From: an uncultured Elusimicrobia bacterium
GTDB taxonomy: Bacteria > Elusimicrobiota > Elusimicrobia > Elusimicrobiales > UBA9959
Assembly: GCA_903879915.1 (NCBI GenBank)
Contig: CAIRNJ010000091.1
Span: 95,718-159,717, forward strand
Direction of reading: 5' to 3'
Length of the DNA: 64,000 bases
The notes beneath the pieces were generated by a model that saw nothing but the letters and a program-made list of their open reading frames with translations, ran no database searches and was not told where the DNA came from. This document shows positions 29,314 to 51,785 of this stretch, piece by piece. The position numbers and the translations under genes were made by a program. Positions within the stretch are counted from its first letter, which is position 1. Each line of letters begins with the position of its first letter.

Positions 29314-30150
29314 TCAGAAAGACTTAACTTTGCGCATGCGCAGCTTTATCAGGTAGAAGCCGGTATTCTGGCCGGCCGAATGCGTGGCGTAGGCGTTGGC
29401 GCCGTCCATGGCCTGCGCCAGCTGCAGCCGGAAGTTGCTCATGGCGCCCTCTTCGGCGCGCACCAGCTCCAGCCGCTCGAAGAATTCCGGCCCGCCGGCT
29501 TTTTCCAGGTAGCCGTTGATGGTTTCCAGCTGGGCGCCCATGCCCTCGAGCCGGCCGGGGTAGGTGAAAAATTTGCCCTGGTGGCGGCACTTGTATTTGC
29601 CAGCCGGGGTTTTAAGGAGCAGGCCGGCTTTCTTCAGCGACTCAAGCGCCTTCGCGACGGCTTTGGGCTCCAGCTCGAGTTTCCCGGCCAGTTCCTCCGG
29701 GGACCAGGTGCCCCCGTCGCTGCACAGCGCTTCGGCGCACCAGTAGACGGCCTCGCTGGCGGCCATAGCGGTGAATTCCTCCGGGCTTAAATGCACCGAG
29801 GAATGGGCCTTCATCCAGGTCATGGCGCCGGGCCCGGCGCCGGCCGCGGACTGGCCGGAAAAAAGCGGGGCTAGTATGTAATCCGCGCACCTGCCGCCGC
29901 CCAGCGAGTCGCGCAGGTAGCTCATAAGCAGCTCCCTGGCCTCGGCCTGCGTCGGCAGCAGCCGCAGGGCCAGCATGATCCGCTCCAGCCACTCGGGCTT
30001 GGGGACGGACGCTCCCTTCTCGATGCGCATGTAGTGGACGAAGGTGAAAGCGAAGTGCTTTCTGCCGCCGTTGCGGTGGTAGAACTTGTAGGCGGTGTCG
30101 AAGCCCGCGGCCGACCTGGCCTTTATAAGGTTTTCGTGGAAACTCAGCAT
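29314..30150 (-). CDS. Putative HTH/winged-helix transcription regulator, paralog R1 (TIGR02147/DUF4423-like)
   Basis: The N-terminus LIKARSAAGFDTAYKFYHRNGGRKHFAFTFVHYMRIEKG and the central PEELAGKLELEPKAVAKALESLKKAGLL are collinear with 41850..42710, 42723..43604 and 50896..51765. Confidence 0.55.
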   Translation of the reverse strand: MLSFHENLIKARSAAGFDTAYKFYHRNGGRKHFAFTFVHYMRIEKGASVPKPEWLERIMLALRLLPTQAEARELLMSYLRDSLGGGRCADYILAPLFSGQSAAGAGPGAMTWMKAHSSVHLSPEEFTAMAASEAVYWCAEALCSDGGTWSPEELAGKLELEPKAVAKALESLKKAGLLLKTPAGKYKCRHQGKFFTYPGRLEGMGAQLETINGYLEKAGGPEFFERLELVRAEEGAMSNFRLQLAQAMDGANAYATHSAGQNTGFYLIKLRMRKVKSF

Positions 30151-30233
30151 TTGCTCTCCTTGACCATAGGCTAGTTATTATAGCGGTAGGGCGCGGTTTT
30201 AGCAACTTTCAGGCGGGAAATAAGGTGGGGAAA

Positions 30234-30283
30234 TAAAGTGACACAGAACTTAATTGTTGCCAATTAAGTTCTGTGTCACTTTA
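30234..30283 (-). terminator. Long palindromic hairpin, family copy 2
   Basis: Arms GTGACACAGAACTTAATTG (30238..30256) and CAATTAAGTTCTGTGTCAC (30261..30279) with loop TTGC. It matches copy 1 except for one position, which is changed in both arms. It lies right after the S8 stop and ~85 nt upstream of the R1 start. Confidence 0.6.
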
Positions 30284-30284
30284 A

Positions 30285-31436
30285 TTATAACAGCTCCATC
30301 GCTTTCTTCAGGTCAAGACGGCCGGTGCCGAAGACTTCATCCCGGCCGGGGTTGCCCAGGTCCACAGTGGATGCCAGCAGCAGGTCGATGAGTTCCTGCG
30401 CGGTCAGGTCAGGTTTTACCGACAGCATCAGCGCCGCCGCGCCGGAAACTATGGCGGCTGACAGCGAAGTGCCGTTGCTGGTTATGTAGCCGCCGCCTTT
30501 GTCGGTGGTATACAGCGCGGAAGACGGCGCGGAAAGGTCCACATACGCCCCGGTGTTGTACGCCGGCGGATGCCAGTCCAGTTCGTTGGTAGCCCCCGCC
30601 ACCAGCATATGCGGGTCGTCGGGGAGGTTGAGATACTCTCCCTTATTGCCGGCCGATACTACCAGCACCCCGCCCTTGTTATAAAGATATTCCGCCGCTT
30701 CCTGCACTGCCAGGTTGCCGGCGGCGTTGCTCATGCTCAGGTTAACCACCTTTATGCCCCGGTCGGCGCCCCACTTAATGCATTTCGCGCTGTTGGCGTG
30801 GTCGGTGGCGCCGTCGGCCTGGTTGCTCACCTTGCCGGGGATCATCGTGACCGCCCAGTTAACCCCTGAGGCGCCGGTGCCGGTATGGCCGCCCTGCGCG
30901 CCTATCAGCCCGGCTATGCGCGTGCCGTGGCCGTTGCCGGTGGGCTCAGTATTAGCGCTGCCGTCCACGAAGTTCATGCCCGGGCCCACGTTGCCGCGCA
31001 GGTCCGGGTGCCCGGACTCTATGCCGGTGTCGCAGACCAGCACCCGCACGCTGCGGCTGCCTTTGCTTTTCGCCCAGAAAAGCGGGGCCTGTATCTTAGA
31101 AAGGAACCAGGTCTTATCCGGAGCGTCCGCTTCTACAGCGGCTTTGGGCGGATAAGCGAGTTCCTGCGGCTGTACCGCGCTCACACTATTGAGCGCCTCC
31201 AGTCTGGCGGCAAGGTCCTTTCCGCCCCTTGAGGTTTTTCCTTTCGCCAGGTAAACGTCGCCAACCACGGGGTCTACCGTAATGCCGGGCAGGTCCCGTT
31301 CCAGCGCCGCAGTGAACGCTTCTATGCCGCTGCCTTTCTGGAGCTTGAACAGTACCGAAGCTTCTCCTTCTTCCGCCGCCGCGCCCGTTGAAAGCGCCAG
31401 CAGCGCCGCCGCCGCAAGTTTTAGTTGTGTTTTCAT
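30285..31436 (-). CDS. Secreted subtilisin-like serine peptidase (S8)
   Basis: The Asp-His-Ser triad contexts are VLVCDTGIESGHPDL, GHGTRIAGLIGA and GTSLSAAIVSGAAAL. A signal peptide is present. Confidence 0.88.
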   Translation of the reverse strand: MKTQLKLAAAALLALSTGAAAEEGEASVLFKLQKGSGIEAFTAALERDLPGITVDPVVGDVYLAKGKTSRGGKDLAARLEALNSVSAVQPQELAYPPKAAVEADAPDKTWFLSKIQAPLFWAKSKGSRSVRVLVCDTGIESGHPDLRGNVGPGMNFVDGSANTEPTGNGHGTRIAGLIGAQGGHTGTGASGVNWAVTMIPGKVSNQADGATDHANSAKCIKWGADRGIKVVNLSMSNAAGNLAVQEAAEYLYNKGGVLVVSAGNKGEYLNLPDDPHMLVAGATNELDWHPPAYNTGAYVDLSAPSSALYTTDKGGGYITSNGTSLSAAIVSGAAALMLSVKPDLTAQELIDLLLASTVDLGNPGRDEVFGTGRLDLKKAMELL

Positions 31437-31439
31437 GCT

Positions 31440-32471
31440 TTAGTTCGCCCCGAGCGCGGGCTCGCTCTTAAGGTTCCAGATGCCGGACGCCACGGACAGG
31501 TTGCATTTATCGCCGGGCTGGCATACTTTCAGCTGCCGGCAATTGCTGGCTCCGTCGTGGAAATGGTCCGCGTGGCCGCTGGACGTTATCCCCAGCACCT
31601 CGCCGGTGGCGGAGTCGAACACCGGGGAGCCGGAGTCGCCGCCGAAAGTGTCCATTTCGGAATCGAAAGCCTGCCCGCTGGGTTTTATATGCAGGATAGG
31701 CGCGGAGTCTTTGAATTTCAGCGGCAGCCCGTTGGAATTCCCGATGTTCACCAGCCCGGTCCCCACGGCCGGCTGTGAGTTCAGGGCCAGCTTTAAAGGC
31801 TTGCGCCCCTCTACCGGGCGGTCCAGCTGCAGGATGGCGTAGTCTATGTCCCCGAAATTCTGGTAGTTCCGGGCTACTATCTTTTTGCACTGGTAGACCC
31901 TGTCCGCACCGACCTTCGTGTAATTCTTGTCGCTCTGGCTCGCCAGCGCGTATTCGAAGACCCATTTGAAATTATCGCAGTCTTCCTGGGCCTTTATACA
32001 ATGCGCCGCGGTCACCAGCAGGTCGGGCTTTACCAGGAACCCCGTGCAGCTGGGAACGGTGATCTGGTCCGCGAAACGATTGCCGGGGCATTCCTTCGCG
32101 CTCAGTGGATCGCCATGCAGCTCCCAGGAAGAGCCGCGGTCTGTGATGTGATCTACGGAAACCTTGCCGGCCAGGGAACGGCCGATCTCCCGCCAGCGGT
32201 CCGGAACGGAGAAAAGCTCCTGCCGGTCGTCCTTCCCGAAAATAGCCCGGGAAGGCAGCACGGCGGCGGAGCTGACAGTTTTCGGCCGCATCTCTTCCCT
32301 GAGGAGGGTCATGATAGAAGACAGGTCCACGCCCTGGGCTTCCGGAGCCTGAACGGCCGCTGCGGCCGGGAAGCCCGCGCTGCCCGCCCGCGGTTGTTCC
32401 AAGCCGTAGGCTAGGTCAAATTTCGCCCAAGCAAACATTAACACGATGGTTAGCGCTATGAGTATTTTCAT
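31440..32471 (-). CDS. Secreted trypsin-like serine peptidase (S1)
   Basis: LVTAAHCI and GGDSGSPVF are present. There is a 3-nt gap to the downstream S8 gene, so they form an operon. Confidence 0.85.
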   Translation of the reverse strand: MKILIALTIVLMFAWAKFDLAYGLEQPRAGSAGFPAAAAVQAPEAQGVDLSSIMTLLREEMRPKTVSSAAVLPSRAIFGKDDRQELFSVPDRWREIGRSLAGKVSVDHITDRGSSWELHGDPLSAKECPGNRFADQITVPSCTGFLVKPDLLVTAAHCIKAQEDCDNFKWVFEYALASQSDKNYTKVGADRVYQCKKIVARNYQNFGDIDYAILQLDRPVEGRKPLKLALNSQPAVGTGLVNIGNSNGLPLKFKDSAPILHIKPSGQAFDSEMDTFGGDSGSPVFDSATGEVLGITSSGHADHFHDGASNCRQLKVCQPGDKCNLSVASGIWNLKSEPALGAN

Positions 32472-32497
32472 TTTTTGTGCCCTTATAGTAGTGGTAT

Positions 32498-32535
32498 AAA
32501 GGACCCGGGCGCGCCCTGCGGCGGCCGGGCCCTTT
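32498..32535 (-). terminator. Possible terminator hairpin downstream of the His/Gly/Pro-rich gene
   Basis: AAAGGACCCGGG...CCGGGCCCTTT is an imperfect stem with a 16-nt loop. The U-tract on the minus strand is weak. Confidence 0.35.
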
Positions 32536-32550
32536 ATTTTACGTCCCTGT

Positions 32551-33666
32551 CTACTGAATGTCCAACATCTCTACGCTGCTGGTCTCCGGGCCTACCGAGC
32601 CCTGGCTGCGGCGCGCGAACTTAACGGTAAGTACGTACTTGCCGGGGTTCGGGTTGTCGGCGAGCCTTATGCTGTACAGCGAGGCCACGTCGTAAGTGCC
32701 GTGCACGGTTATCTGCTGCAGCCCGTTGGGGGACACGTTCCCGCCGGCGGGAAGGACCATAGCCTCTACCGTGAGGTCTATCTGCGAGCCCTTGTAGTAG
32801 GCAGCTTTAGCGTCGGAGAAGGTCAGATAGAACGACCTGCCGATATAGCCGGAGGAGTCCAGCGCGATCTCTTTATACACCGGAGCAGGCTGAGGCGGTA
32901 CGGGGTTGTAGGGCTCGGGGGTAGGCGGATAATACGGCTCGGGCTGGGGCGGCATAGGAGGCTGCGGATGCCACGGCGCAGGCTGCGGATGCCATGGGCC
33001 GGGGCCGTCATGATAACCAGGGCCGTCGTGGTTGCCGGGACCGGGCTGCGGATGCCACGGCTCAGGCTGCGGGCCGGGATGGTTGTCGTGACCGGGGCCG
33101 TCGTGGTTGCCGGGGCCGGGCTGAGGTCCGGGCTGGGGATGCCACGGCTCAGGCTGCGGGCCGGGATGATTATCATGGCCGGGGCCGTCGTGATTGCCGG
33201 GGCCGGGCTGGGGCTGCGGATGCCAAGGTCCAGGCTGGGGACCGGGCTGAGGGCCGGGGCCGTTGTGATGACCGGGGCCGTCGTGGTTGCCGGGGCCGTC
33301 GTGGTTGCCGGGGCCGGGTTCCGGGTGCCAGGGCTGGGGTTCCGGCACAGGCGGAGGGTTAAAGCCGCCGTGATCGCCGCCGGGCTGCGGGTTAAAACCG
33401 CCGTGGTCGCCGCCGGGCTGCTGGCCGCCGCCGTGGTCTCCGCCGCCGTGGTTGCCGCCAGGCTGCTGGCCGCCGCCGTGGTCGCCGAAGCCGGGGCCGG
33501 GCTGGTTGCCGCCGCCGTGGCCGCCGCCGTGGTCACCCGGTCCTTTCAAAGTATCAACGGTTTTCAGCACTTCTCCTACGCTCTTATCGAAGTCTGCTTC
33601 CGCCGCGAACGCCCTCCCGGAAAGCGAGAGCAGCATTGCTGCCGCAACTAAAGATTTCGTTTTCAT
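32551..33666 (-). CDS. Secreted His/Gly/Pro-rich low-complexity protein with a structured C-terminal domain
   Basis: Signal peptide MKTKSLVAAAMLLSLSGRAFAAE. About 220 aa consist of GDHGGG, GPGNHDGPG and PWHPQPGP motifs, followed by a ~110-aa beta-rich C-terminus. Confidence 0.7.
   Translation of the reverse strand: MKTKSLVAAAMLLSLSGRAFAAEADFDKSVGEVLKTVDTLKGPGDHGGGHGGGNQPGPGFGDHGGGQQPGGNHGGGDHGGGQQPGGDHGGFNPQPGGDHGGFNPPPVPEPQPWHPEPGPGNHDGPGNHDGPGHHNGPGPQPGPQPGPWHPQPQPGPGNHDGPGHDNHPGPQPEPWHPQPGPQPGPGNHDGPGHDNHPGPQPEPWHPQPGPGNHDGPGYHDGPGPWHPQPAPWHPQPPMPPQPEPYYPPTPEPYNPVPPQPAPVYKEIALDSSGYIGRSFYLTFSDAKAAYYKGSQIDLTVEAMVLPAGGNVSPNGLQQITVHGTYDVASLYSIRLADNPNPGKYVLTVKFARRSQGSVGPETSSVEMLDIQ
32883..33537 (-). 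repeat. Coding low-complexity/tandem repeat region (GGNCCNGG-rich)
   Basis: Repeated DNA units such as ggccggggccgtcgtggttgcc encode GPGNHDGPG/PWHPQPGP. Confidence 0.7.
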
Positions 33667-33827
33667 AATCCTCCCAGTAATTTTGGCGCATAATGCCTTA
33701 CGCCATTAAAACTATTTTATGGAATCCTGCGAGTCCCCAATAGAGGCGTTGGGCCCAGCGCCTTTTTGTTTATTGACCCAGGAGGAACGGCTTATTAAAA
33801 GCGGCTTTAGTTAAGCATCCGGCTTAA
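33667..33827 (-). promoter_or_regulatory. Type-1 upstream cassette, copy F (His/Gly/Pro-rich gene); divergent
   Basis: P0 at 33811..33827 (TTAAGC-N5-GCTTAA), core at 33777..33794 (diverged), ATAGAGG at 33740..33746 in place of CCTGAGG, and ATTTTATG at 33714..33721 (TAAAAT hexamer). Linkers are still 16/30/18 nt. Confidence 0.6.
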
Positions 33828-33840
33828 CAGAATAGCGGCT

Positions 33841-33877
33841 GAAAAAATGAACAACCCCGCCGGAGAGCGGGGTTGTT
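33841..33877 (-). terminator. Rho-independent terminator of the APP1-like gene / operon G
   Basis: AACAACCCCGC-cggaga-GCGGGGTTGTT, with CATTTTTTC following on the minus strand. Confidence 0.7.
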
Positions 33878-33912
33878 GAAGGATAATCTCAGGTTCCGAC
33901 TTTTTGGGGGGG

Positions 33913-34779
33913 TTACTTGTTCCGGCACAGATCGTTCACGTTCGCTTTAACTTGTTCGTAAATCCCGCTTATAGCCGAAGCGTCCGGGGTTTGGGCCAGA
34001 ATTTTCTGGTTGAGTTTCGGCCAGGCTTTGAAGGTCGCGCACTCCATAAATTCAGGGACCACCTGTTTTGCCAGTTCTCTGTTGCCGCTGTCATACTCTA
34101 TTTCTCCGAGGATCCTCGTCAGGGCGGCTTCGTCCAGCCAGCCGTGGTTGGCGAACTGTACCGCCAGGTCCGCGGAGGTTAAAAACGGAACGTGCCCGGC
34201 CGGGATCTCAAGCCCGTTCGCGCCCGGTTTGTAGACGTGGTGTATGAAAGAATATACCCGGGCGGCGCCGTTCTGGCCTTCAACATGTTTCATAAGCTCG
34301 CCGTAAGCGTAGATATCCTGCTCGCCGTTATCACCGACAAGTATCATCAGCTCGGGTTTTTCCCGTTCATAGATCCTTATAAGTTCGCGGGCTTTGAACT
34401 CTCCGGGGCCTTCCGTCATCGGGTCCCTTCCGCTCACTATGGAATCCTTTATGTCTCCCCGCTGCGGCGGAAAACCGGACATCCTTAAAAAATCTATCCC
34501 TATCTCGTCAAGTTCTCCCGGCGCCGCTGTCAGGTATTCCGTCTTGCCGGCGGCCGCGAAAACGGCCGCGCAGCCGTTATAAAGTATGCTCATGCCGGCA
34601 AATTCATTGTCGGTGCCGAACGCGTGCCCGGCCGTGTTCATGCTGTTTATGCCGGATATTTTAATGGTGTCGTCGATGTCCGAGATCAGCAGGTTCCGGG
34701 CCGCGAACAGGTCCGTCCCCGGCACGGAGAGCATTGCTGTAAAACTTAAACAGCCGGCCAATTTTTTTATATGGTTCAT
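33913..34779 (-). CDS. Secreted APP1-like (DUF2183) phosphatidate/lipid phosphatase
   Basis: LLISDIDDTIK (DxDxT) and LVGDNGEQDIYAY match the App1 catalytic domain pattern. A signal peptide is present. Confidence 0.6.
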   Translation of the reverse strand: MNHIKKLAGCLSFTAMLSVPGTDLFAARNLLISDIDDTIKISGINSMNTAGHAFGTDNEFAGMSILYNGCAAVFAAAGKTEYLTAAPGELDEIGIDFLRMSGFPPQRGDIKDSIVSGRDPMTEGPGEFKARELIRIYEREKPELMILVGDNGEQDIYAYGELMKHVEGQNGAARVYSFIHHVYKPGANGLEIPAGHVPFLTSADLAVQFANHGWLDEAALTRILGEIEYDSGNRELAKQVVPEFMECATFKAWPKLNQKILAQTPDASAISGIYEQVKANVNDLCRNK

Positions 34780-34791
34780 CGTTCGTCCTTT

Positions 34792-35880
34792 TTAATTCGC
34801 CGGCAGGGTGGAGCAGTCAAAATAGCCCTGCCCTGTGCTCCTGCCGGTTACCAGGAATTCTTCCATTACCGCGGCCAGCGGGCGGGACCTGAGGCCGGAA
34901 TACTCGTCCAGCGCCAGCTCGCCGAAGCTGGTAAGGTAAGCCTGCGCGGCCATGGCCGCCAGCTCTGGCGCCCTGCCTACGCCCGGGAACCTGTCGTCGC
35001 CCTTAAAATATATGCTGTCCCGGGGGTCGGCGTTGAAGCCGAAGAGATGGACACAGGCTTTGGCCTCGGCCGGCGGCAGAAGTTCGTTGTCGTAGTAATA
35101 GCACAGGTCTTCTATAACGCGCGGGTCGGCGGCCGACCGCTGCGTGTGCGCGGGGGAAAACGAATCCTCTATGGTGTGCGCCGCCACGCCCAGCGAGAAA
35201 TACATCAGCTCGTAAGCGCGCAAAGCCTCGCTTTTGTCGGGGGTATTATTGCCTCTCAGCCATTCCTTCCAGGCGCTGTCCGTGAACCTTCCGATCAGAC
35301 TTACGGCTTTTTCGCAGGAGCGGCGGGCGGAGTCAAGTTTTACCGGAGGCTTCCCGCCGGTTTCAATGAACGCTCTTAAAAAATGAACCGGCATCCCCAT
35401 GCCGTTCGGGTTGAAGTTCTCGTACGTGGACTCGGCCAGCTCTACGCCCAGCTGCTCGTTCCAGATCCGGGTGTAAAGCCTGAACAGCGCGGATTTGGAG
35501 GTTCCATGTATGTTAAGGCGCTGCGGATAATCGGCCGCCGTGTTGCCCGACTGCAGCCTGTTCGAAGTAAGAAGGGTAGAATGTTTGATGTCGTCGACCT
35601 GAAAAAAACCGCCTTTCAGGGTTTCCGGGTTCAGCTCGAAATCTTCCGGGAGTATCCCGGGCGCGGCCGGTTTCTGGCCAAGCCCCTTAAGCCAGGCCCC
35701 GATGGCCGCGCTTTGAGTGCCGCGCAGCGCGCCGTTCGCGCCTTCTATGGCGGATCTTGTCAGTACGCTGTGCGAATCGAAGATATACTTTCCGAACTGG
35801 TCCCAGCTGCGGGCTACGGACGGAGCGGTGAGGAGGCAGGCTAAGGTTAGAATTCCCGCTGCTATCTTCTGTTTGGTCAT
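34792..35880 (-). CDS. Secreted zinc-dependent phospholipase C-like protein
   Basis: The mature N-terminus WDQFGKYIFDSH has Trp1 and His~11 as in clostridial alpha-toxin. LGVAAHTIEDSFSPAH matches LG.A.H...D...P.H of Zn-PLC. Confidence 0.6.
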   Translation of the reverse strand: MTKQKIAAGILTLACLLTAPSVARSWDQFGKYIFDSHSVLTRSAIEGANGALRGTQSAAIGAWLKGLGQKPAAPGILPEDFELNPETLKGGFFQVDDIKHSTLLTSNRLQSGNTAADYPQRLNIHGTSKSALFRLYTRIWNEQLGVELAESTYENFNPNGMGMPVHFLRAFIETGGKPPVKLDSARRSCEKAVSLIGRFTDSAWKEWLRGNNTPDKSEALRAYELMYFSLGVAAHTIEDSFSPAHTQRSAADPRVIEDLCYYYDNELLPPAEAKACVHLFGFNADPRDSIYFKGDDRFPGVGRAPELAAMAAQAYLTSFGELALDEYSGLRSRPLAAVMEEFLVTGRSTGQGYFDCSTLPAN

Positions 35881-35951
35881 TTTCAGTGTTCTCCCGGCCT
35901 TTAAATGCTGCCGCGCCCGGTGTAATAACCGGGCGCGGTCCGTTCTTCTGT

Positions 35952-43694: not shown

Positions 43695-44627
43695 TTAATT
43701 CGCCGGCATCGTCTGTTCTATCCACTGCAGTCTGTGCATTGTGCTCACTGCGTCTAAAGCCTCTCGGAGGTCCCGGTTGTAGGGGAACTCGGCATTATAC
43801 GCGTCCTCCACCAGCCGGGTCAGCATCTGTACGCCTTCCCCCTGGCTTCCGGCGGTGAAAAGGGTGCCGTTGGGATAATACCAGGCCCCGCTGTTCCCGG
43901 ACTGGACAAGAAAAGCGTATTTCCCGTTGGGATATTTCCAGGACCCCTTGTCGCTGTAGTTGTCCGCTATCAGCGCGTATTTTCCGCTGGGATACTTCCA
44001 GGCGCCTTTGTCGCTGTAGCCGTCGCCTACCAGCGCGTAGCTCCCGTTCGGGTATTTCCAGGAACCCTTGTCGCTGTAGTTGTTCCCTACCAGCGCGTAT
44101 TTTCCGCTGGGATACTTCCAGGCGCCTTTGTCGCTCCAACCCTCACCCACCAGCGCGTAGTTCCCGCCGGGATACTTCCAGGAACCTTTATCGCTCCAGC
44201 CCTCTCCCACGAAAGCGTATTGTCCGCCGGGATATTTCCAGGAGCCTTTGTCGCTGTATTCCGGTCCCGCGTAAGCTATCGTCCCGTCCGGATATCGTAC
44301 CGTGGCTGTCGGCTCGTTAGAAAAATGGCAGACCAGGCGCGCCAGCGCGGCCGGCTCATTCCCTGAGCCCGCGTTCTCAAGCTCCGCTAAAAATTCCATC
44401 GTGCGGGCCTGCGCGCAGCGGTCAATGGTGCCCTCAATATCTCTTAAGGAGGCTTCTGAGCGCGGCCGTTTCTCCGCGCCGTAGTTCACGGGAGAGCCCG
44501 GCAGGACCGCTTCATTAAGTACAGAAGGTGAAACGGAGGTTTTTAATGACCCGATCGCTCCTTCTCCCGCGAAAGCCGCATTAACACCTAACAGCACCGC
44601 CGCAGCCGCATAGATAGAACTTTTCAT
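43695..44627 (-). CDS. Secreted tandem-repeat protein (about seven 19-aa repeats, SDKGSWKYPNGxYALVGxGY)
   Basis: Signal module MKSSIYAAAAVLLGVNAAFAGEGAIGSLK. The repeats resemble MORN-variant GxWxYYxNG motifs. Confidence 0.65.
   Translation of the reverse strand: MKSSIYAAAAVLLGVNAAFAGEGAIGSLKTSVSPSVLNEAVLPGSPVNYGAEKRPRSEASLRDIEGTIDRCAQARTMEFLAELENAGSGNEPAALARLVCHFSNEPTATVRYPDGTIAYAGPEYSDKGSWKYPGGQYAFVGEGWSDKGSWKYPGGNYALVGEGWSDKGAWKYPSGKYALVGNNYSDKGSWKYPNGSYALVGDGYSDKGAWKYPSGKYALIADNYSDKGSWKYPNGKYAFLVQSGNSGAWYYPNGTLFTAGSQGEGVQMLTRLVEDAYNAEFPYNRDLREALDAVSTMHRLQWIEQTMPAN
43856..44303 (-). repeat. Tandem 57-nt coding repeats
   Basis: Recurrent ...ccgctgggatacttccaggcgcctttgtcgct... units are visible by eye. 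Confidence 0.7.
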
Positions 44628-45272: not shown

Positions 45273-45423
45273 TTACTGTTTCCTCCTCTGTCTGAAACCT
45301 CTTACTACAAGTTTACCCCGTTTCTCCGCTGCTTTCCTGAGGCCTAAGAACCAGAACGGCCGATTTCTTTGACCCAGGAGCGGCGGCTTAGCTGAATAGT
45401 ATTTCGTTAAGCCGCGGGCTTAA
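45273..45423 (-). promoter_or_regulatory. Type-1 upstream cassette, copy I
   Basis: P0 at 45407..45423 (overlapping the stop codon 45420..45422 of the upstream gene), core at 45373..45390, CCTGAGG at 45336..45342 and AGTTTACC at 45310..45317. Linkers are 16/30/18 nt and the leader is 37 nt. Confidence 0.75.
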
Positions 45424-46070
45424 TACCCCGCGGGCGTAAATACCGCCGGGGCGTTCTTCCGCGCTTCGCCGTAAGACTCCTGCCTGCTCCGGCACGTCTG
45501 CAGCGCCGCGTCAAGGCTTGCCGGGGCGCCGAAGACGGGGCTTACGGCCCTGTCCAGGCACACCAGCGGGGCGAGAGGTTCTGAAGTGCCGCCGCAAAGC
45601 TGAAGGCCGTATTCGAGGGTAAGCGAGTAACCGCCGATGGTCTGGGATACGGTCCGATCAAGGCAGGTGACCGGGGCTTCCGCAACGGAGGTGCCGCCGC
45701 ACAGCTGAATGCCCTGCTTAAGGTTAAGTCTATACTGGTACGCTATTGAATGCCCCAGCGCTTTTTCAAGGCAGGCCAGCGGCGCTTCCGGTTTTGCGCT
45801 GCCCGCGCACAGGTTGAAGCTGTCGTCGCGGGTAAGGTCCCGGCCCCCGACGGGCCTGGTCTTCGCCGTATCTACGCAGTTCTGCATGGTGAACGTCTGT
45901 TCCGCCGGCGCCGCTGCATCGGCATAGGATTTGGCTTCGGCCGGCCGAACCAGCCCAGCGATAGCCGAAACCGGGGTATTAGCTTTCAATGAACCGCGCG
46001 CGCTTTCACCCGCGTAAGAGATATTTATCCCGAATATTACCGCCGCCGCCGTATATAGTGATCTTTTCAT
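45420..46070 (-). CDS. Secreted Cys-repeat protein, family C paralog 1
   Basis: Signal module MKRSLYTAAAVIFGINISYAGESARGSLK. Three units of the type LC.G....APL.CL..A are present. Confidence 0.6.
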   Translation of the reverse strand: MKRSLYTAAAVIFGINISYAGESARGSLKANTPVSAIAGLVRPAEAKSYADAAAPAEQTFTMQNCVDTAKTRPVGGRDLTRDDSFNLCAGSAKPEAPLACLEKALGHSIAYQYRLNLKQGIQLCGGTSVAEAPVTCLDRTVSQTIGGYSLTLEYGLQLCGGTSEPLAPLVCLDRAVSPVFGAPASLDAALQTCRSRQESYGEARKNAPAVFTPAGY

Positions 46071-46085
46071 AGTAGCCAGCTCTCC

Positions 46086-46292
46086 TTACAGACAATATGC
46101 GATGGTCCCTGCGCCCATGTCGGAGCCGTTCTGATCGAACGGTCCCCAGAAGAACAGGTCCTCGCCGTCCGTCCCTTCCACTTCAGCTGCAGTGGGCGCG
46201 CTGGCGGGAACTATTAGTCCGGTGGGGGCCGCTTTCTGCGCCGGCTTTGAAACCATCCTGGAAGTTATATTTAACAGTCCGGAACTTTTCAT
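46086..46292 (-). CDS. Small hypothetical protein (68 aa), no signal peptide
   Basis: It directly follows a full cassette (J) and has an AAGGAGGG Shine-Dalgarno. The sequence is Ala/Pro/Gly-rich and ends in ...AYCL. Confidence 0.4.
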   Translation of the reverse strand: MKSSGLLNITSRMVSKPAQKAAPTGLIVPASAPTAAEVEGTDGEDLFFWGPFDQNGSDMGAGTIAYCL

Positions 46293-46447
46293 GCGCCCTC
46301 CTTGCCTGTCCGCCTTGGAAACCTCTCATTACTAGTTTACCCCGCGGGACGCCTGGCTTCCTGAGGACGAAGCCCCAATGCGGCGCGCTTATCCGGCCCA
46401 GGAGCGGCGGCTTATGAAAAGCGTATTCTGTTAAGCCGCCGGCTTAA
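46293..46447 (-). promoter_or_regulatory. Type-1 upstream cassette, copy J
   Basis: P0 at 46431..46447, core at 46397..46414, CCTGAGG at 46360..46366 and AGTTTACC at 46334..46341. Linkers are 16/30/18 nt. P0 starts 11 nt after the upstream CE4 stop. Confidence 0.75.
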
Positions 46448-46458
46448 CCGCCGCTTTA

Positions 46459-47565
46459 TTACTCTCCTTTAAAAGCCTGCGCCAGCCTTTCGGGGGAAAC
46501 TACTTTGTAGCCGTTCTCGGCCAGCCAACCTGCCAGCCGCTTGGCGGCCGTGCGGCTCTGCGGATGGATGTCGTGCATCAGCACTATGCCCTTGCCGCGC
46601 TTCGCTATCATGGAGATGGTGTTCTTGTAAAGCGTATCGGGGTCTTTCGTGGACCAGTCCAGCGTGTCTATGGTCCAGCCCACCGGCACCAGGTCCAGGT
46701 CGGAGGCTATGGCCCTGGCGGCCTCGGGCGAGACCACGCCGTAGGGCGGCCTGAAGAAAGAGGACTTTTTCCCGGTGACCGCGGTTATGGAGGAGCTTAC
46801 GCCGCCCAGCTGCCTGAGGGTTTCCTCCAGCGACAGCGCGGTGAAAGGCTTGCCTGACGGGGTGGCGTGGTTGTAGCCGTGCACGCCGATAAGGTGCCCG
46901 TCGGCCGCTTCGGCCTTCAGGCGGGTTTTGCCGTTCTCGCCGAGGTTGGCGCCCAGCACGAAGAACAGGCTCTGCGCGCCGGCCTCTTTCATGGAGGAGG
47001 AGACCTCCTCTGTCAGCGGCCCGGGGCCGTCGTCGAAGGTCAGGATCACTTCGCCGTTGTTCAGGAACCCGTCGAACTGCACCAGGTAAGGCGTATTGGC
47101 CTTTACGTAGTTTATCTGGCAGTAGCCGGCTTTTATGGGCACGCCGCGCGTTTCTTCGCCGCGTAAGCCGCCGAAGTTAAAAACGCCGTCCAGTTCCGCT
47201 TTCACCCTGTCAGAAATCCAGCCGTTGTCCCGGGGCGGTTCGGGCCGGTAGGGGGCGCCTGAGGCGGCGGTTATGCCGGCCGAAAGGTTTTCCAGCACGC
47301 CGCGCAGGTATTTGCCGGCGGCCGAGTGCTCGAGGAATTCGGGCGTGTCCTGCCGCTCCGAGAAAGCTCTCTCGGAATATGCCCGGAGGGCGGAATAATA
47401 TTCATCGTAGCCGGCTTTCAGCGAATTTATGTCCGCGGCGGGCGGCTGCGCGGCCGGTACTTCTACGGCGGCGGGGACCTGCGGCAGCTGAGGGGGCTGC
47501 GCGAAAGCCGGAACGAACGGCGCTATTGAAAACAATGAAACCAGCAGGCAGAGCTTTTTGTTCAT
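46459..47565 (-). CDS. Secreted polysaccharide deacetylase (NodB/CE4)
   Basis: ILTFDDGPG, GVHGYNH, FFRPPYG and VLMHD are the CE4 motifs. A signal peptide is present. Confidence 0.82.
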   Translation of the reverse strand: MNKKLCLLVSLFSIAPFVPAFAQPPQLPQVPAAVEVPAAQPPAADINSLKAGYDEYYSALRAYSERAFSERQDTPEFLEHSAAGKYLRGVLENLSAGITAASGAPYRPEPPRDNGWISDRVKAELDGVFNFGGLRGEETRGVPIKAGYCQINYVKANTPYLVQFDGFLNNGEVILTFDDGPGPLTEEVSSSMKEAGAQSLFFVLGANLGENGKTRLKAEAADGHLIGVHGYNHATPSGKPFTALSLEETLRQLGGVSSSITAVTGKKSSFFRPPYGVVSPEAARAIASDLDLVPVGWTIDTLDWSTKDPDTLYKNTISMIAKRGKGIVLMHDIHPQSRTAAKRLAGWLAENGYKVVSPERLAQAFKGE

Positions 47566-47583
47566 TATATTATCTCCTTGGAA

Positions 47584-48132
47584 TTATACTCCAGTCAATA
47601 ATGCGTAACCGGTTCCCCCGGGCAGGCCGGCGGCTTTAAGTATCAGCCTCCCGCCGTTCTGCCTTATCTCCGCGCTGACGGCGGCGCCGGCGGCGGGCTT
47701 GAGCGCCATAACGGCCGTCCCGTCGCTGTAGCCGGTGCCTTGGTAGCCCTTCCCCGCCAGCGCGAGCTCGGCGGAAAAGTAAACCACCGGCCCGACAAAA
47801 TCATAATGGCCGGTTATCTTTATATGCCCGGCGCCCCGGTCGAGTCTGGCGTTAATATCCGCGGTCAGCAGTTCCAGGTCGTAGCCGTCCGGATAGTCCG
47901 GCGAGACCAGTTCGGACAGCGGCACAGCCTGCCCGCTTTCGAAAAGGCCGGCCAGCGCGGCGTAGGTCCGTTTGCCATTTTCGCCCGCGGTAAGCGTAAC
48001 CCGCGCCGGCGCGCCGGCTGCGGGCCCTGCGGCGGCCGCAGGCGCTTGCGCTGCAAGCGTCTTGAGCGCTTCTGCGGCGTACGCGCCGCCTGTTATCCCC
48101 GACACCAGAACCAGTATCATCAGCTTCTTCAT
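47584..48132 (-). CDS. Secreted hypothetical protein
   Basis: Signal peptide MKKLMILVLVSGITGGAYAAE. It is the middle gene of operon K. Confidence 0.55.
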   Translation of the reverse strand: MKKLMILVLVSGITGGAYAAEALKTLAAQAPAAAAGPAAGAPARVTLTAGENGKRTYAALAGLFESGQAVPLSELVSPDYPDGYDLELLTADINARLDRGAGHIKITGHYDFVGPVVYFSAELALAGKGYQGTGYSDGTAVMALKPAAGAAVSAEIRQNGGRLILKAAGLPGGTGYALLTGV

Positions 48133-48189
48133 TATTGTTCCCTCCGGATCTTTTATTTTTTTTGCTGCGGGCTTCGCAAATACTGGCTG

Positions 48190-49110
48190 TTAAATGCCCC
48201 AGCCTTTCCAGAATATCAGGCAGGAGTAGACCCTGCCTTCAGGAGTTTCATTGCTGTAGATCTGCAGGCCCATTACTTTCGAGCGGTGTTCCGCAGCGGA
48301 GAGCAGGATTTCCACGGCTTTTTCCGCGCTCTTATACTTGCCTTCATAGTCGGCCTTGCAGGTTTTAGTGTTCGCAAGGTGAGAGGCCGCGCCGGAGATA
48401 TACGCGCCCACCTGGTGCGTGCCCTCGAAGATAACGCCTATTCCCGCCTCCATCCCGTACAGGTCCAGCGCTTTCTCCGTGTTAGCGGCGGCAGGCCTGT
48501 TGATGCTGTAATAGACCGTGAACGAGAACTTGTCGCCCTGCATAACTACGAGTTTCGCCAGCACTTTCCCGCCGGCGCGCTCTACCATCAGAGCGGCTGC
48601 CGCGGCGTCCGTGGCGGCCGCCGCCGCGGTCTGGTAAACGCGTCCGGCGGCGAAGCCGTCGAAGCTTTCAATGGCCGGCGAGCCGCTGTAAAGGATCTCC
48701 AGGGTGTAGCCTTGCGCAACGGCCGGGGCGTCCAGGCTGTGCAGCTTCAGCCCCGCGTTCTGCAGCAGTTTGGTCCAGAAGTTTATGGCTTTAGAAAGGT
48801 TTTCCTTGTCCGGTAGCGCGGCATGGGACCGGAGCACGGGATAGCCGCTGTTAATGCCCGCCTCCTGCGGCGTATACGCGGGGAGGGGGGCCATTAAAAA
48901 ATACGGCATTGTAACGCCGTTCTGCTCTATCCCGCTGTCGGCCGAAGATGGCGAGAGGAAACTTAAGATGGATTTAGGGCCGGCCGCCCTGGCGACCGCC
49001 GCGCTTTCCGTGCCGGCCAGCGTCAGGAGCCCGCCCAGGGCGGGGGCCGCGCACTGCCCCAGCTGCGCCGAACACATCGTAACCGCGAATATCGTCAGCA
49101 TTCTTTTCAT
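48190..49110 (-). CDS. Secreted hypothetical protein
   Basis: Signal peptide MKRMLTIFAVTMCSAQLGQCAA. It is the first gene behind cassette K. Confidence 0.55.
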   Translation of the reverse strand: MKRMLTIFAVTMCSAQLGQCAAPALGGLLTLAGTESAAVARAAGPKSILSFLSPSSADSGIEQNGVTMPYFLMAPLPAYTPQEAGINSGYPVLRSHAALPDKENLSKAINFWTKLLQNAGLKLHSLDAPAVAQGYTLEILYSGSPAIESFDGFAAGRVYQTAAAAATDAAAAALMVERAGGKVLAKLVVMQGDKFSFTVYYSINRPAAANTEKALDLYGMEAGIGVIFEGTHQVGAYISGAASHLANTKTCKADYEGKYKSAEKAVEILLSAAEHRSKVMGLQIYSNETPEGRVYSCLIFWKGWGI

Positions 49111-49287
49111 CTGGTTCTCCTTATCTTCTGTACGGGCCGGGGCTTGTTCCAGGCCTCAAAACCTCACAATATAAGTTTACCGCGGTTTTTGCCGGATTAC
49201 CTGAGGCCGAAGAACTAACGCGCGCGGCTTATCCGGCCCAGGAGCGGCGGCTTATCAGCGCCGCCTTTCGTTAAGCCTTTGGCTTAA
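49111..49287 (-). promoter_or_regulatory. Type-1 upstream cassette, copy K
   Basis: P0 at 49271..49287 (TTAAGCC-TTT-GGCTTAA), core at 49237..49254, CCTGAGG at 49200..49206 and AGTTTACC at 49174..49181. I counted the linkers base by base as 16/30/18. Confidence 0.8.
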
Positions 49288-49410
49288 CGCTGTCGGGCGC
49301 CGGACAATAACCTGTAATTGTAGCGGGGTACAGCTCCGCCCGTGACAAATACTTAACACAACCATAGTGGTGCTATTGGGATTTGTTTTATTAATGGCAG
49401 ACAAGCAAAC

Positions 49411-49439
49411 TTGACAATGTATAACTTAAGGTATACAAT
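49411..49439 (+). promoter_or_regulatory. Canonical sigma70-type promoter
   Basis: TTGACA (49411..49416), a 17-nt spacer, then TACAAT (49434..49439). It lies ~160 nt upstream of the response-regulator ATG. Confidence 0.65.
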
Positions 49440-49602
49440 AAAAAAGGGGAATACATTCTCATAGTGATGTTTTAGTGGGGTAATCGAGAAAGGTATCTGG
49501 GGGGGAATGAGATCACACTGTAAGGCTGAAGCGTACTAAGGGGCCGGCGGGCTGACGCCGTACCTGGCGATCGTCCGCTGAGATCTTTGTAGGGAGAGCT
49601 TT

Positions 49603-50052
49603 ATGCTGAAAGTAATGGTGGTTGATGACGAAAAAGACACTGTCTGCCTTGTGAAATACCTGATGGAGCGTGAAAAGCTGGAAGTTGTTGAAGCCAGCAA
49701 CGGGCTTGAAGCTTACGCGCGTCTTACCTCCGGCACCGCGGCCCTGAGGCCGCCCGACGCTATAATTCTCGACGTTATGATGCCTGAAATGGACGGCTAC
49801 ACTTTTCATACCAAGCTGCAGGAAACGGAGGGGTTGCAGGATATCCCTATCGTTATCCTGAGCGCCAAAGATAAGCTGCGGGAGATGTTCTCGTCCTCTT
49901 CCAATATCTTCGCTTTCGTGGAAAAACCGTTCGAGGCCAAAACGCTGGTGGACACGGTGAAAGCCGCCATGGACAGCAGAAAAAGCAGAGGTTTTGATAC
50001 CCTGAACAACCCCGCCAACAGCGGCAGAATGATAAAGCCGCCGCTGAATTAA
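49603..50052 (+). CDS. Single-domain response regulator (CheY-like receiver)
   Basis: VVDDEKD, ILDVMMPEMDG (phospho-acceptor Asp), LSAKD and VEKPF are present. There is no output domain. Confidence 0.85.
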   Translation: MLKVMVVDDEKDTVCLVKYLMEREKLEVVEASNGLEAYARLTSGTAALRPPDAIILDVMMPEMDGYTFHTKLQETEGLQDIPIVILSAKDKLREMFSSSSNIFAFVEKPFEAKTLVDTVKAAMDSRKSRGFDTLNNPANSGRMIKPPLN

Positions 50053-50103
50053 ATGGAGCCCGGAGCCGCGGCGTGTAGAACGCAGAGTAATAAAGGAAGA
50101 ACC

Positions 50104-50718
50104 ATGAAAATAACAGTGTTGACCATCATGCTCGCGGCAGCGGCGCTTTCAGCCGCTTACGCCGGCGAAAGCGCGGCAGGCCTGCTCAGGTCCGCCGTTC
50201 CGGGGCCGGCCCCGGAGGCCGTTCTTCCCGCTGCGCCAACTGCTGCGCCGGCCGGTACGCAGCTTGATGCTAAAACCCGGTACCAGGCCGACGCGCCCAT
50301 AGCGTGCTATCTCAAGGCCGTAACCTCATTATTCCCGGCCGCTTATCCCTTCGCGGCTGAAAGGGCCGTAAAGTTCTGCAGCGGCGCACAGTCCGCGGAC
50401 GCGCCTTTAGCCTGTTATAGCACGGCCCTGGCCTTAACCTACCCGGGCGGCGCTCATTTTACTGTGGACAGCGCCATCAACCTCTGCAGCGGTGCGCAAT
50501 CCGCTGAGGCGCCCATAGCCTGTTATGGCAAAGCCCTGGCCTTAACTTATCCAAGCGGCTATCCCTTCACGCCTGATAACGCTGTCAGGCTCTGCGCCGG
50601 CGCGCTATCCGCTGATGCGCCCATAGCCTGCTATAGCAAAGCTATGGCCTTAATTTATCCGAGCGGTGCTCCTTTCTCGGCGGACAGCGCCATCAAGCTG
50701 TGCGGGGATGCGCTGTAA
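50104..50718 (+). CDS. Secreted Cys-repeat protein, family C paralog 2 (four 36-aa repeats)
   Basis: I moved the start to MKITVLTIMLAAAALSAAYAGESAAGLLR (ATG 50104, AAGGAAGA upstream). The repeats are DAPIACY.KA.AL.YP.G..F..D.A..LC.GA.SA. Confidence 0.65.
   Translation: MKITVLTIMLAAAALSAAYAGESAAGLLRSAVPGPAPEAVLPAAPTAAPAGTQLDAKTRYQADAPIACYLKAVTSLFPAAYPFAAERAVKFCSGAQSADAPLACYSTALALTYPGGAHFTVDSAINLCSGAQSAEAPIACYGKALALTYPSGYPFTPDNAVRLCAGALSADAPIACYSKAMALIYPSGAPFSADSAIKLCGDAL
50290..50715 (+). repeat. Four tandem 108-nt coding repeats
   Basis: The 36-aa Cys-pair unit recurs four times to the end of the ORF. Confidence 0.65.
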
Positions 50719-50842
50719 TGGCGTACGCTTGTCTGTCTCCTGACAGGCGTAGTTCTGGTCGTCTTAAAAGTCAAGTGATGCGGCTGTTCACGTAGCGAAG
50801 TTCTGTGCCGGGCGGTAAAGCTGGTTTTCCCGCATTCATAAA

Positions 50843-50876
50843 AGAACGGGACCGGCGCAAGAGCCGGTCCCGTTCT
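50843..50876 (-). terminator. Terminator between convergent genes (best U-tract on the minus strand)
   Basis: AGAACGGGACCGGC-gcaaga-GCCGGTCCCGTTCT is a perfect 14-bp stem. The minus strand continues TTTTATGAA. Confidence 0.6.
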
Positions 50877-50895
50877 TCTGTGCCCGCTTCCGCGG

Positions 50896-51765
50896 TCAGT
50901 CCTTGGGGAGCAGCTGGAAGATGCCGGCGTCGACCATATAGATGGCTGACGCCTGCCTGTTCTCTCCGGAGTCGGCGTAGATGGCGGCCAGCTCCACGAA
51001 TTTATCCATGTGCTGGCGGTAGATATCCAGGTTGGCCCTCGACATACGGATGGTTATCCGTCTCGTATCCACCCGGCCGGCTTTCTTCATCCACTTCTCC
51101 AGGTGTCCCAGCAACGCGGCCTTCACCGGGGCGGTAGCCGGCGTCGCGGGCAGCAGCTCCACTACTTTCGCCGCGTATTCGGAGCGCGTTTTATCATTGG
51201 TAAACTCAGCTATGCCCTGGGCCGCGAACGTTCTGAGGGTTTTCCTTATCAGGTCGGGTTTGAAGCCCGTGGCGTTGGATAATTCGCGCACCGTTACCCA
51301 GCCCGTGGTGTTGAACAGATAATACTGGCAGAGGAACGACACCATGTCGCGGGCGCATACTTTCCATTGTTCCAGCGTAAGATTGGCGGTGCGCTGCGCG
51401 AGCGCTTTTTGTGTCGCGGCTTCCGCCAGCTCCCTGCTGGGGAGGTCCTCGTCCGCGGCGCCGGCTGCCGCCGGGGCGGACAGGGAATCGAGCAGTTCGT
51501 CCGAGCCCGACAGCGCTTTGAAATAGGCCCGGATCAGCTCCTGGCCCCGGGGGGAATCCTGTTCCACGCCCAGCGCGGCTATTATCGCTTTCAGGCGCCA
51601 GCTCCTGGGCAATTTCTTCCCGTGCTCCGTGTTCCAGTAGGTCATCAGGCTGAAGCCCAGGCTTTTTTTCCCGCCTACGCTGTTATAGAACTGGTGCGCG
51701 CTGGAGAAGCCCAGCTCTTTCCTTATCCTGGCCAGTACGCTGCCGAAAGCTTTTGAATTATTCAT
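50896..51765 (-). CDS. Putative HTH/winged-helix transcription regulator, paralog R4
   Basis: MNNSKAFGSVLARIRKELGFSSAHQFYNSVGG... and WVTVRELSNATGFKPDLIRKTLRTFAAQGI are present. Its start codon is 21 nt from palindrome P0 of divergent cassette L. Confidence 0.6.
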   Translation of the reverse strand: MNNSKAFGSVLARIRKELGFSSAHQFYNSVGGKKSLGFSLMTYWNTEHGKKLPRSWRLKAIIAALGVEQDSPRGQELIRAYFKALSGSDELLDSLSAPAAAGAADEDLPSRELAEAATQKALAQRTANLTLEQWKVCARDMVSFLCQYYLFNTTGWVTVRELSNATGFKPDLIRKTLRTFAAQGIAEFTNDKTRSEYAAKVVELLPATPATAPVKAALLGHLEKWMKKAGRVDTRRITIRMSRANLDIYRQHMDKFVELAAIYADSGENRQASAIYMVDAGIFQLLPKD

Positions 51766-51785
51766 TCGGCAATTATAACAAATAG

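Follow-up and report, generated by a model that had tools for sequence, protein, structure and literature searches.

The window analysed here, a stretch of 64,000 nucleotides (nt) from an uncultured Elusimicrobia bacterium (Elusimicrobiales, UBA9959; GenBank assembly GCA_903879915.1, contig CAIRNJ010000091.1, positions 95,718 to 159,717, forward strand), harbours three closely related regulator genes, R2, R3 and R4, and a family of promoter cassettes. Comparison with related loci indicates that regulators of this type probably bind the palindrome at the head of the cassette, here called P0 (TTAAGCC-N3-GGCTTAA), and control both the genes that encode them and the cassettes, which precede genes for proteins with signal peptides. 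This prediction is carried by a conserved divergent gene layout and by residues of the predicted recognition helix that change together with bases of P0. A first-pass annotation of the window had tied four regulators, R1 to R4, to the cassettes and had proposed paralog-specific operators. The coupling was retained for R2 to R4, on the basis of the conserved layout, and given up for R1, the orthologs of which have unrelated neighbours and lack P0. Elusimicrobia are almost entirely uncultured, and the searchable literature was found to hold nothing on transcription regulation in this group.

Regulator genes and promoter cassettes

The four genes have the coordinates and strands previously assigned to them:

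29314..30150, minus: R1, 278 amino acids (aa); distant paralog with its own Shine-Dalgarno (SD) sequence (AAGGAGAG) and TATAAT box, without P0 or cassette coupling
41850..42710, plus: R2, 286 aa; XRE-type helix-turn-helix (HTH) and winged helix; M38, M41, L46; second gene of its array, weak SD (TAAGGCAGG)
42723..43604, plus: R3, 293 aa; L38, M41, M46; predicted reader of GCC-type P0; third in the array, with an SD (AAGGAG)
50896..51765, minus: R4, 289 aa; F38, M41, T46; sole gene of its array, predicted to be leaderless

A whole-length protein alignment confirmed that the four proteins are collinear, and both motifs quoted for them earlier were found in the proteins. R2, R3 and R4 share 57-67 % amino acid identity, and 70-84 % DNA identity over stretches of 200-300 nt (repeats D8, D12 and I1-I3); identity between R1 and R2-R4 is only 22-26 %. 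Both this paralogy and the cassette family are far beyond chance; the G+C content of the window is ~60 %.

The cassette is a module of ~135 nt with 12 copies in the window, each directly 5' of a gene (nhmmer E-values 1e-23 to 1e-35). Read towards the gene, it consists of P0, an AT-rich spacer, a third half-site (TAAGCC), CTCCTGGG, CTGGTTC..GGCCTCAGG, GTAAACT, a variable 5' untranslated region, AAGGAG and the ATG. P0 occurs in a GCC and an ACC type, as had been noted, in 9 and 3 of the 12 cassettes respectively. The products of cassette-driven genes carry signal peptides and include proteases, a GH2 glycosidase, proteins with an FGE-sulfatase domain, a deacetylase and many proteins without a Pfam family. 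Geometry was determined for 91 unique cassettes from the window and 65 related loci (23 from species genomes and 42 from metagenomes). The distance from the centre of P0 to CTCCTGGG was +35 in 59 and +34 in 13 of these, to CCTCAGG +73 in 53 and +72 in 15, and to TAAACT +100 in 66 and +99 in 10, whereas the distance to the ATG varied from 140 to 231. Because spacing is nearly fixed up to TAAACT and variable to the ATG, TAAACT is predicted to behave like the -10 box of the cassette promoter and the upstream stretch like a rigid protein-binding platform. Two cassettes adjoin regulator genes:

41524..41655, minus: core of cassette H, with P0, third half-site, CTCCTGGG, GCCTCAGG and the TAAACT -10; drives the gene of a signal-peptide protein at 40220-41479 (minus)
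41638..41654: P0 of cassette H, TTAAGCC-AAC-GGCTTAA, GCC type; its centre lies 30 nt upstream of the ATG of a relic gene (see below)
51784..51915, plus: core of cassette L; drives the gene of a signal-peptide protein at 51970-52968 (plus)
51786..51802: P0 of cassette L, TTAAACC-ACG-GGTTTAG, ACC type; its centre lies 29 nt upstream of the R4 ATG

A conserved divergent layout and predicted leaderless regulator genes

Upstream DNA was available for 65 unique genes of the R2/3/4 type, and 55 of these lie beside a cassette in a fixed divergent layout. Read towards the regulator gene, this layout comprises CCCAGGAG-CGGC-GGCTTA, ~17 nt, TTAAGCC-N3-GGCTTAA, 8-9 nt, TATACT (often preceded by TGn; general form TAnnnT), 6 nt and the ATG. 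The gap between -10 box and ATG, counted in 58 unique genes, was 6 nt in 54 and 7 nt in 4; in 53 of the 58, ~30 nt lie between the ATG and the centre of P0 upstream of it, and 8-9 nt separate P0 from the -10 box. The palindrome overlaps the core promoter of the regulator gene itself. The layout is kept within 1 bp across lineages down to ~50 % protein identity. An SD-like motif was found in none of the 55 genes with the fixed layout. Of the ten exceptions, seven stand second or third in a tandem array and do have an SD. The arrangement of a -10 box 6 nt before the ATG, without an SD, therefore predicts that the first R gene of each array is transcribed from an extended -10-only promoter, with P0 near -30, into a leaderless mRNA.

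R4 matches the layout exactly:

51772..51777, minus: R4 -10 box, TGT TATAAT (extended -10), 6 nt before the ATG at 51765, no SD

It had been reported earlier that the R4 start codon lies 21 nt from the P0 of divergent cassette L. The adjacency was confirmed, the spacing being 20 nt. R2 and R3 are indeed divergent from cassette H, as had also been described, but do not directly adjoin it; they lie 195 nt from its P0, with the relic of a fifth paralog, now deleted, in between.

A scan for canonical sigma-70 promoters did not pick up the R promoters, which have no -35 box. This fits -10-only promoters and proves nothing. A near-consensus sigma-70 promoter (TTGACA-17-TACAAT, 11/12) is located at 49411-49439 (plus), upstream of 49603..50052 and 50053..50718 (plus), evidence that this genome also has promoters of the canonical -35/-10 type. 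Three related R genes (loci L012, L038 and L043) retain P0 and promoter and have lost the rest of the cassette.

Co-variation of the recognition helix with P0

Half-sites were numbered from the centre outward (G-G-C-T-T-A-A). Two of the bases are variable, with C or T at base 3 and T or A at base 5. The predicted recognition helix, G37-L-A-F-M41-S-Y-W-D-L46-E-R-G, contains residues 38, 41 and 46. Mutual information was calculated over 47 full-length R proteins, each with an adjacent P0. Residue 41 was the highest column for base 5 (M with T in 21, V with A in 17, V with T in 3 and T41 with A in 1), and residue 38 (L versus F, I or V) was the highest for base 3, followed by residue 46. Among rarer residues, S41 occurs with GGCTGAA, and G41 with GGTCTAA or GGTTGAA. 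Each operator character changes at least 8 times on the protein tree, and in contrasts between nearest relatives the change at residue 41 was in the same direction in 14 out of 14 cases. A parsimony co-change test on a neighbour-joining tree, with all ~290 alignment columns as empirical null, ranked column 41 first for base 5 (Jaccard 0.45; next column 0.25) and columns 46 and 38 first and second for base 3 (0.45 and 0.42; next column 0.29). The first-pass annotation had proposed looking for such co-variation between regulator helix and P0 arms across related genomes, and columns 38, 41 and 46 came out on top. Its suggestion of paralog-specific operators is thereby supported: residues 38, 41 and 46 change together with bases 3 and 5, and R4, with F38 and T46, adjoins an ACC-type P0.

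Predictions were also fixed before new loci were retrieved, and were scored only where P0 was recognisable. Residue 41 was correct in all four loci (L072, L074, L075 and L077), of which L072 is not independent, being near-identical to L030, a locus of the original sample. L073, from a distant lineage, was excluded because its palindrome has diverged and base 5 is G beside V41; if it is counted, residue 41 is correct in four of five. Residue 46 was correct in three of three, with one mixed site.

Agreement extends beyond the P0 next to the regulator gene. The third half-site co-varies with P0, double changes being counted in 19 sequences for the T/A position and in 8 for the C/T position. Furthermore, the base-5 class is uniform among the cassettes of a contig and matches the resident R protein. 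In loci L004, L008, L009 and L023 the cassettes without an R gene are all of the TAAA type, matching residue 41 of the resident R, and in the window M41 is present in all paralogs and T occupies base 5 in each of the 12 P0 copies, consistent with the residue 41 rule. By our own alignment with the 434 repressor, residue 41 would correspond to its base-contacting Gln29. The co-variation data point to a partial recognition rule that would pair residue 41 (M or V) with base 5 (T or A), and base 3 with residues 38 and 46.

Several observations weigh against the proposed recognition and control of P0 by the R proteins. Residue 38 was correct in only one of three new loci and was rejected as sole determinant of GGC versus GGT, residue 46 performing better; residue 46, in turn, is predicted to lie buried in the core, and its co-variation may therefore be indirect. 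A further association, of residue 24 (H or Y) with the CTCCTG[GG] block, appeared strong in the raw data (30/31 and 10/11) and was lost on closer analysis, as column 24 was not at the top in the branch co-change test and was correct in two of four new loci. One locus (L071) has the -10-N6-ATG layout without P0, and two (L073 and L046) have a divergent palindrome (TTCAATC-GCC-GCATGAA). The ACC-type cassettes at 4039-4112, 7626-7699 and 51784-51853 keep third half-sites of the AGCC type (GAAGCC, TCAGCC and TAAGCC, respectively). Finally, P0 lies ~112 bp upstream of the predicted cassette start, which is too far for simple repression or for class I/II activation.

Alternative explanations

This large distance, awkward for direct control, is also the first argument for an alternative in which P0 is solely an autoregulatory operator: R would control itself and perhaps one divergent gene, and the P0 copies without an R gene would be inert duplicates or be read by another factor. 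The three R genes that keep P0 and promoter without the rest of the cassette fit this explanation, and cassettes and the 5' ends coding for signal peptides look co-duplicated (repeat family D11). It is nevertheless considered unlikely. P0 is equally conserved in cassettes without an R gene, its spacing being fixed within 1 bp, and such cassettes share the base-5 variant of the resident R, as in the four loci with TAAA-type cassettes; this match requires continued selection on those sites.

In a second alternative the R proteins do not regulate the cassettes at all. They would act on another DNA target, or belong to a mobile or defence module sharing a duplicated intergenic region, and P0 would be read by a different protein. 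The homologs are all annotated as hypothetical and the family lacks a characterised member, DUF4423 being mentioned once in passing in the literature; moreover the winged helix and C-terminus are without an assigned role. The near-constant divergent layout down to ~50 % protein identity and the specificity of the co-variation for the HTH recognition helix make this quite improbable, and no mobile-element or defence genes were found beside R genes among the window genes scanned.

Least probable is that P0 and the third half-site are nucleic-acid hairpins, either a terminator of the upstream gene or alternative attenuator stems (P0-left with P0-right, or P0-right with half-site 3): the preceding gene often ends only a few nt before P0, a weak terminator-like hairpin was flagged at the P0 of cassette H (41637-41655), and the sole helix that RNAalifold found in 73 cassettes pairs P0-right with the third half-site, with compensatory changes, but the consensus energy is only -4.3 kcal/mol with the rest of the cassette unfolded, P0 lies upstream of both predicted promoters with a T-run ~10 nt from the stem, Rfam finds nothing there, and an RNA model leaves the co-change of recognition-helix residues with stem bases unexplained. 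The cassette as a whole was rejected as a structured RNA on the same RNAalifold and Rfam results.

Paralog assignment and proposed mechanism

Binding of P0 by R2-R4-type regulators is thus the preferred reading. Since residues 38 and 46 of the helix track the choice between GGC and GGT half-sites, the paralogs can be provisionally assigned to cassettes:

R4, F38/T46: adjacent P0 of the ACC type; predicted targets are cassettes c4039, c7577 and c51785
R3, L38/M46: third in its array, no adjacent P0; predicted targets are the nine GCC-type cassettes
Rx, the lost paralog (intact in L001), L38/M46: adjacent P0 of the GCC type; predicted targets are the nine GCC-type cassettes
R2, M38/L46: second in its array, no adjacent P0; no target class assignable

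As the ACC-type cassettes keep AGCC-type third half-sites, the two sites of one such cassette may be read by different paralogs.

In the proposed mechanism, the XRE recognition helix would read the P0 half-sites, and an R dimer would occupy P0 in every cassette with a matching P0. A further R subunit or dimer would probably be located at the third half-site, 32 bp or three helical turns away. Binding at the own R gene would result in autoregulation, probably repression, since P0 covers the -35 region of the R promoter. At the cassettes, R bound to P0, exactly 100 bp upstream of the TAAACT -10, would modulate transcription of the genes for signal-peptide proteins. A bridging role between winged helix and cassette blocks is suggested by the near-invariance of the former and by the invariance and rigid spacing of the latter, and is speculation.

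Extending this, R can tentatively be pictured as a two-headed addressing factor, a model that we regard as doubtful at present. The variable XRE head would read a paralog-specific, fast-evolving address (P0 and the third half-site), and the nearly invariant winged helix would dock on CTCCTGGG, GCCTCAGG or RNA polymerase, building a rigid nucleoprotein promoter of ~100 bp; arrays of paralogs would partition a phylum-specific secretome regulon. If true, this would mean separately switchable sub-regulons and a first function for the DUF4423-like superfamily.

Protein family and fold

Among 1.84 billion representative proteins, an exhaustive HMMER profile search detected only 353 relatives, mostly of ~280 aa. 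All named organisms among the R1 and R2 matches, a minority of which carry a name, are Elusimicrobia, and every match is annotated as hypothetical. A profile search directed at more distant relatives led back to the R2-type proteins already found, and a cluster look-up gave a name for a single distant relative, likewise from Elusimicrobia. It had been suggested that the layout of the regulators resembles that of the TIGR02147/DUF4423 family. The TIGR02147 label was not borne out: none of the four window proteins and none of the 126 profile-detected relatives scanned against Pfam and TIGR02147 matched the model at E<0.01, its presence in the library copy not having been independently confirmed. 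The likeness to DUF4423 (PF14394) proved to be remote. R1 scored 20.6 bits (residues 114-188) and R3 17.4 bits (residues 154-282) against a gathering cut-off of 30, and the Pfam scan gave no match for R2 or R4 at E<0.01. DUF4423 was matched by 21 of the 126 relatives at E<1e-3 (best 7.1e-8), and precomputed PF14394 matches exist for 5 of 60 R1 orthologs and 0 of 102 R2-type homologs. The searchable literature contains no published function for DUF4423, which receives a single passing mention, and no characterised member of the family. Sequence comparison thus places R2, R3, R4 and the product of the deleted paralog in an Elusimicrobia-restricted subfamily of ~286 aa, apparently a remote, sub-threshold relative of DUF4423.

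The earlier proposal of an XRE-like N-terminus followed by a central winged helix is supported by fold searches and profile matches. In the AlphaFold model of R2 (predicted local distance difference test, pLDDT, 85.5), residues 4-95 form a helical N-terminal domain and residues 98-105 a disordered linker; an HTH with beta wing follows (156-192; helices 156-163 and 167-179, then strands 183-186 and 189-192), and the C-terminus is made up of helices. Pfam gave no HTH_3 or HTH_31 match for R1-R4 at E<0.01; HTH_31 matched 8 and HTH_3 matched 5 of the 126 relatives. A profile search of PDB sequences for the N-terminal HTH was marginal as well (ComR, E 0.2). Modelled alone, the N-terminal domain reached a pLDDT of 89.6, and its top 50 Foldseek matches in the PDB are all XRE-family HTH proteins, among them C.BclI, ClgR, C.AhdI, C.Esp1396I, BldD, SinR and DdrO. 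Foldseek probability was 1.00, with a target-normalised template modelling (TM) score of 0.7-0.8 for the best matches (0.18-0.82 across the 50) and a root-mean-square deviation of about 2-3 Å in the majority of compact matches (1.8-10.2 Å across the full list); the E-values were weak, from 6e-3 to 0.27, none being 0.001 or lower. The domain has the five-helix XRE bundle with its E-x-G-x-x-x-P turn, and the corresponding residues E47-R-G-K-K-L-P53 are nearly invariant.

Winged helices of the MarR, ArsR, Rrf2 and DtxR families are matched, by sequence and by profile, at residues 140-190. The Pfam matches, at residues ~145-190, remain below threshold (MarR_2 22.4 bits versus 27, Fe_dep_repress 23.2 versus 26, HTH_24 19.9 versus 21.9); profile matches in the PDB include AdcR (3tgn, E 1.2e-4), Rrf2 and SmtB, and a full-length Foldseek search of the PDB returned weak winged-helix matches only (MarR family, E ~0.01). 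The predicted recognition helix of the winged helix (KPEAVKKALKAL) is nearly invariant across the subfamily and follows no operator variant. On these models, members of the subfamily appear to combine an N-terminal XRE-type HTH with a winged helix, joined by a flexible linker, and to end in a helical C-terminus.

The deleted first paralog of the R2-R3 array

R2 departs from the fixed layout, as the canonical slot after the P0 of cassette H is occupied by the relic of a deleted gene (delta-Rx):

41664..41669, plus: -10 box before the relic, TATACT preceded by TGA (extended -10), 6 nt upstream of the ATG at 41676
41676..41791 (end approximate), plus: delta-Rx relic, in which the first ~43 nt of the gene (ATGAAAAC-TTAAAGGCGTTCGGCGGCGTCCTGG, carrying a frameshift and a stop) are joined to the last ~65 nt
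43628..43657: GC-rich terminator-like hairpin of 13 bp with T-runs on both sides, which would end the R2-R3 unit

The near relative L001 has an intact Rx gene (2882-3751), as does L024, and in both of them orthologs of R2 and R3 come next. About 760 bp of the first paralog have therefore been lost in the lineage of the window. R2 and R3 represent the second and third genes of an array and are now predicted to be transcribed through the relic from the promoter at 41664..41669. The conserved leaderless start now opens a three-codon open reading frame (41676-41684, ATG AAA ACT TAA), and the leader before R2 would be ~170 nt.

R1, a separate regulator

Orthologs of R1 in related genomes are 80-88 % identical and occur in unrelated contexts without P0, and neither the palindrome described below nor P0 is conserved upstream of them. 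R1 was rejected as a cassette-linked regulator on these grounds. It appears to be a cassette-independent regulator outside the R2-R4 system, and a functional grouping with R2-R4 is unwarranted.

Two elements near R1 had been reported previously. The cassette-like region beside it does contain a core, GCCTCA-N23-TAAACT (29216-29182, minus), and it has neither P0 nor CTCCTGGG. The gene downstream of R1, 28289..29131 (minus), is thus preceded by the promoter-proximal part of the cassette only, without P0, third half-site and CTCCTGGG. Since this part occurs on its own there, GCCTCA...TAAACT may be a self-sufficient core promoter and the distal half of the cassette a regulatory add-on. The palindrome upstream of R1 also exists (30231-30286), with arms of 26 nt, not 19. 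It has a near-identical counterpart at 28177-28232; both are perfect palindromes (AAATAgAGTGACACAnAACTTAATTG and its complement) that differ by a compensatory C/G change in both arms, and their 19-mer core has 4 matches versus 0.01 expected. They directly follow the stop codons of 28289..29131 (minus) and 30285..31436 (minus), the first abutting the P0 of cassette c28001. These palindromes resemble terminators, yet are AT-rich and unusually long.

Other features of the cassettes and the window

The promoter-proximal half of the cassette occurs in two types. Type I reads CTGGTTCTTCGGCCTCAGG...GGTAAACTTATA..TGAGGTTT (CTGGTTC...CCTCAGG). Type II reads TGGGCAC..GGCCTCT(A)TTGG...GCTAAACTATAGTATCGCAAC and has a better -35-like element, TTGGAC, 16 nt before TAAACT. 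Both were noted in alignment A6, in the window (33696-33829) and in L048, L052, L053, L056, L013, L023, L042, L045, L059, L016 and L017. They do not track the adjacent R protein, and a comparison of winged-helix residues with the two types revealed no pattern. A sigma-54 promoter (CTCCTGGG...AAGCG or TGGTTC...CCTCA) was rejected by eye, the GG-to-GC spacing being N9 or N7 instead of N10 and the GC not being conserved.

A conserved signal peptide, MKRSLYAAAAVLFGANVSYAG..ALxSLK, is common to several cassette genes (repeat family D11). Three paralogous genes of ~730-770 aa without a Pfam match, 20346-22532, 22730-24958 and 35952-38258 (all minus), are each preceded by a cassette; the first two arose as a tandem duplication and share 72-79 % DNA identity over 300-nt stretches. 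Tandem repeats are present inside the genes of secreted proteins at 43855-44318, 50287-50713 and 32963-33538 (60 nt x6, 108 nt x3 and a Gly/His/Pro-rich array, respectively). The last is a low-complexity array (GDHGGG..QPGPG) in 32551..33666 (minus). Rfam at gathering threshold matched no cassette in the window, its sole match being a tmRNA gene:

8756-9107, plus: tmRNA (RF00023, 135.7 bits)

Comparison with known systems

The closest worked-out analogue appears to be the regulatory circuit of the C proteins of type II restriction-modification systems. C.PvuII, an XRE-type HTH protein, binds palindromic C-boxes overlapping the -35 of its own gene, first activates and then represses that gene autogenously through two adjacent sites, and has a leaderless mRNA (PMC2175313). 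C proteins (C.PvuII, C.AhdI, C.Esp1396I) are among the best structural matches of the R N-terminal domain, and R genes resemble theirs in a predicted leaderless start, in an operator near -30 and in a second site that co-varies with the first, approximately three helical turns away. C proteins, however, are single-domain proteins of ~80 aa linked to restriction-modification genes, whereas R proteins have 278-293 aa with an additional winged helix and C-terminus, and the R operator is found again at a dozen other promoters of the 64-kb window. No restriction-modification genes were found among the scanned neighbours of R genes, which are genes for secreted proteins.

The five-helix fold of the N-terminus is shared with 434/lambda-type repressors and with XRE regulators carrying sensor domains (ComR, SinR, BldD, ClgR, DdrO). 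The sequence ...Y-W-D-x-E-R-G-K-K-L-P of R fits their helix 3-E-x-G-x-x-x-P motif, and operators are palindromic with 7-bp arms and specificity positions at the start of helix 3. R differs in having an extra short helix between helices 2 and 3, hydrophobic residues (M, V, L, F) at the contact positions instead of Gln, Ser or Arg, and a winged helix in the C-terminal part instead of a peptide- or ligand-binding domain. With MarR, ArsR and Rrf2 regulators, R shares the profile and fold of residues ~140-195; its matches are below the family cut-offs, and the domain is internal, not a stand-alone dimer of ~150 aa. The DUF4423/TIGR02147 proteins of Fibrobacter, Bdellovibrio and Leptospira are similar in size (~270-290 aa) and in occurring as multiple paralogs per genome, and the winged helix with helical C-terminus aligns to DUF4423; the window proteins are nevertheless sub-threshold or unmatched, and relatives with an organism name are all Elusimicrobia.

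The R system would otherwise be of a familiar kind, that of the autoregulated XRE-type transcription factor. Its unusual features are two predicted DNA-binding domains, a conserved leaderless design and co-evolution with operators across a whole regulon. For this phylum the analysis provides an operator (TTAAGCC-N3-GGCTTAA), a predicted leaderless extended -10 promoter type and a partial recognition rule, all testable with purified protein and short duplexes, without culturing. R genes with a lost cassette or a diverged palindrome could show how the operator evolves. The operator classes could predict co-regulated secreted hydrolases in metagenome-assembled genomes, and the system would offer a natural example of a transcription factor co-evolving with the operators of its regulon across species, and of paralogs splitting a regulon within one genome.

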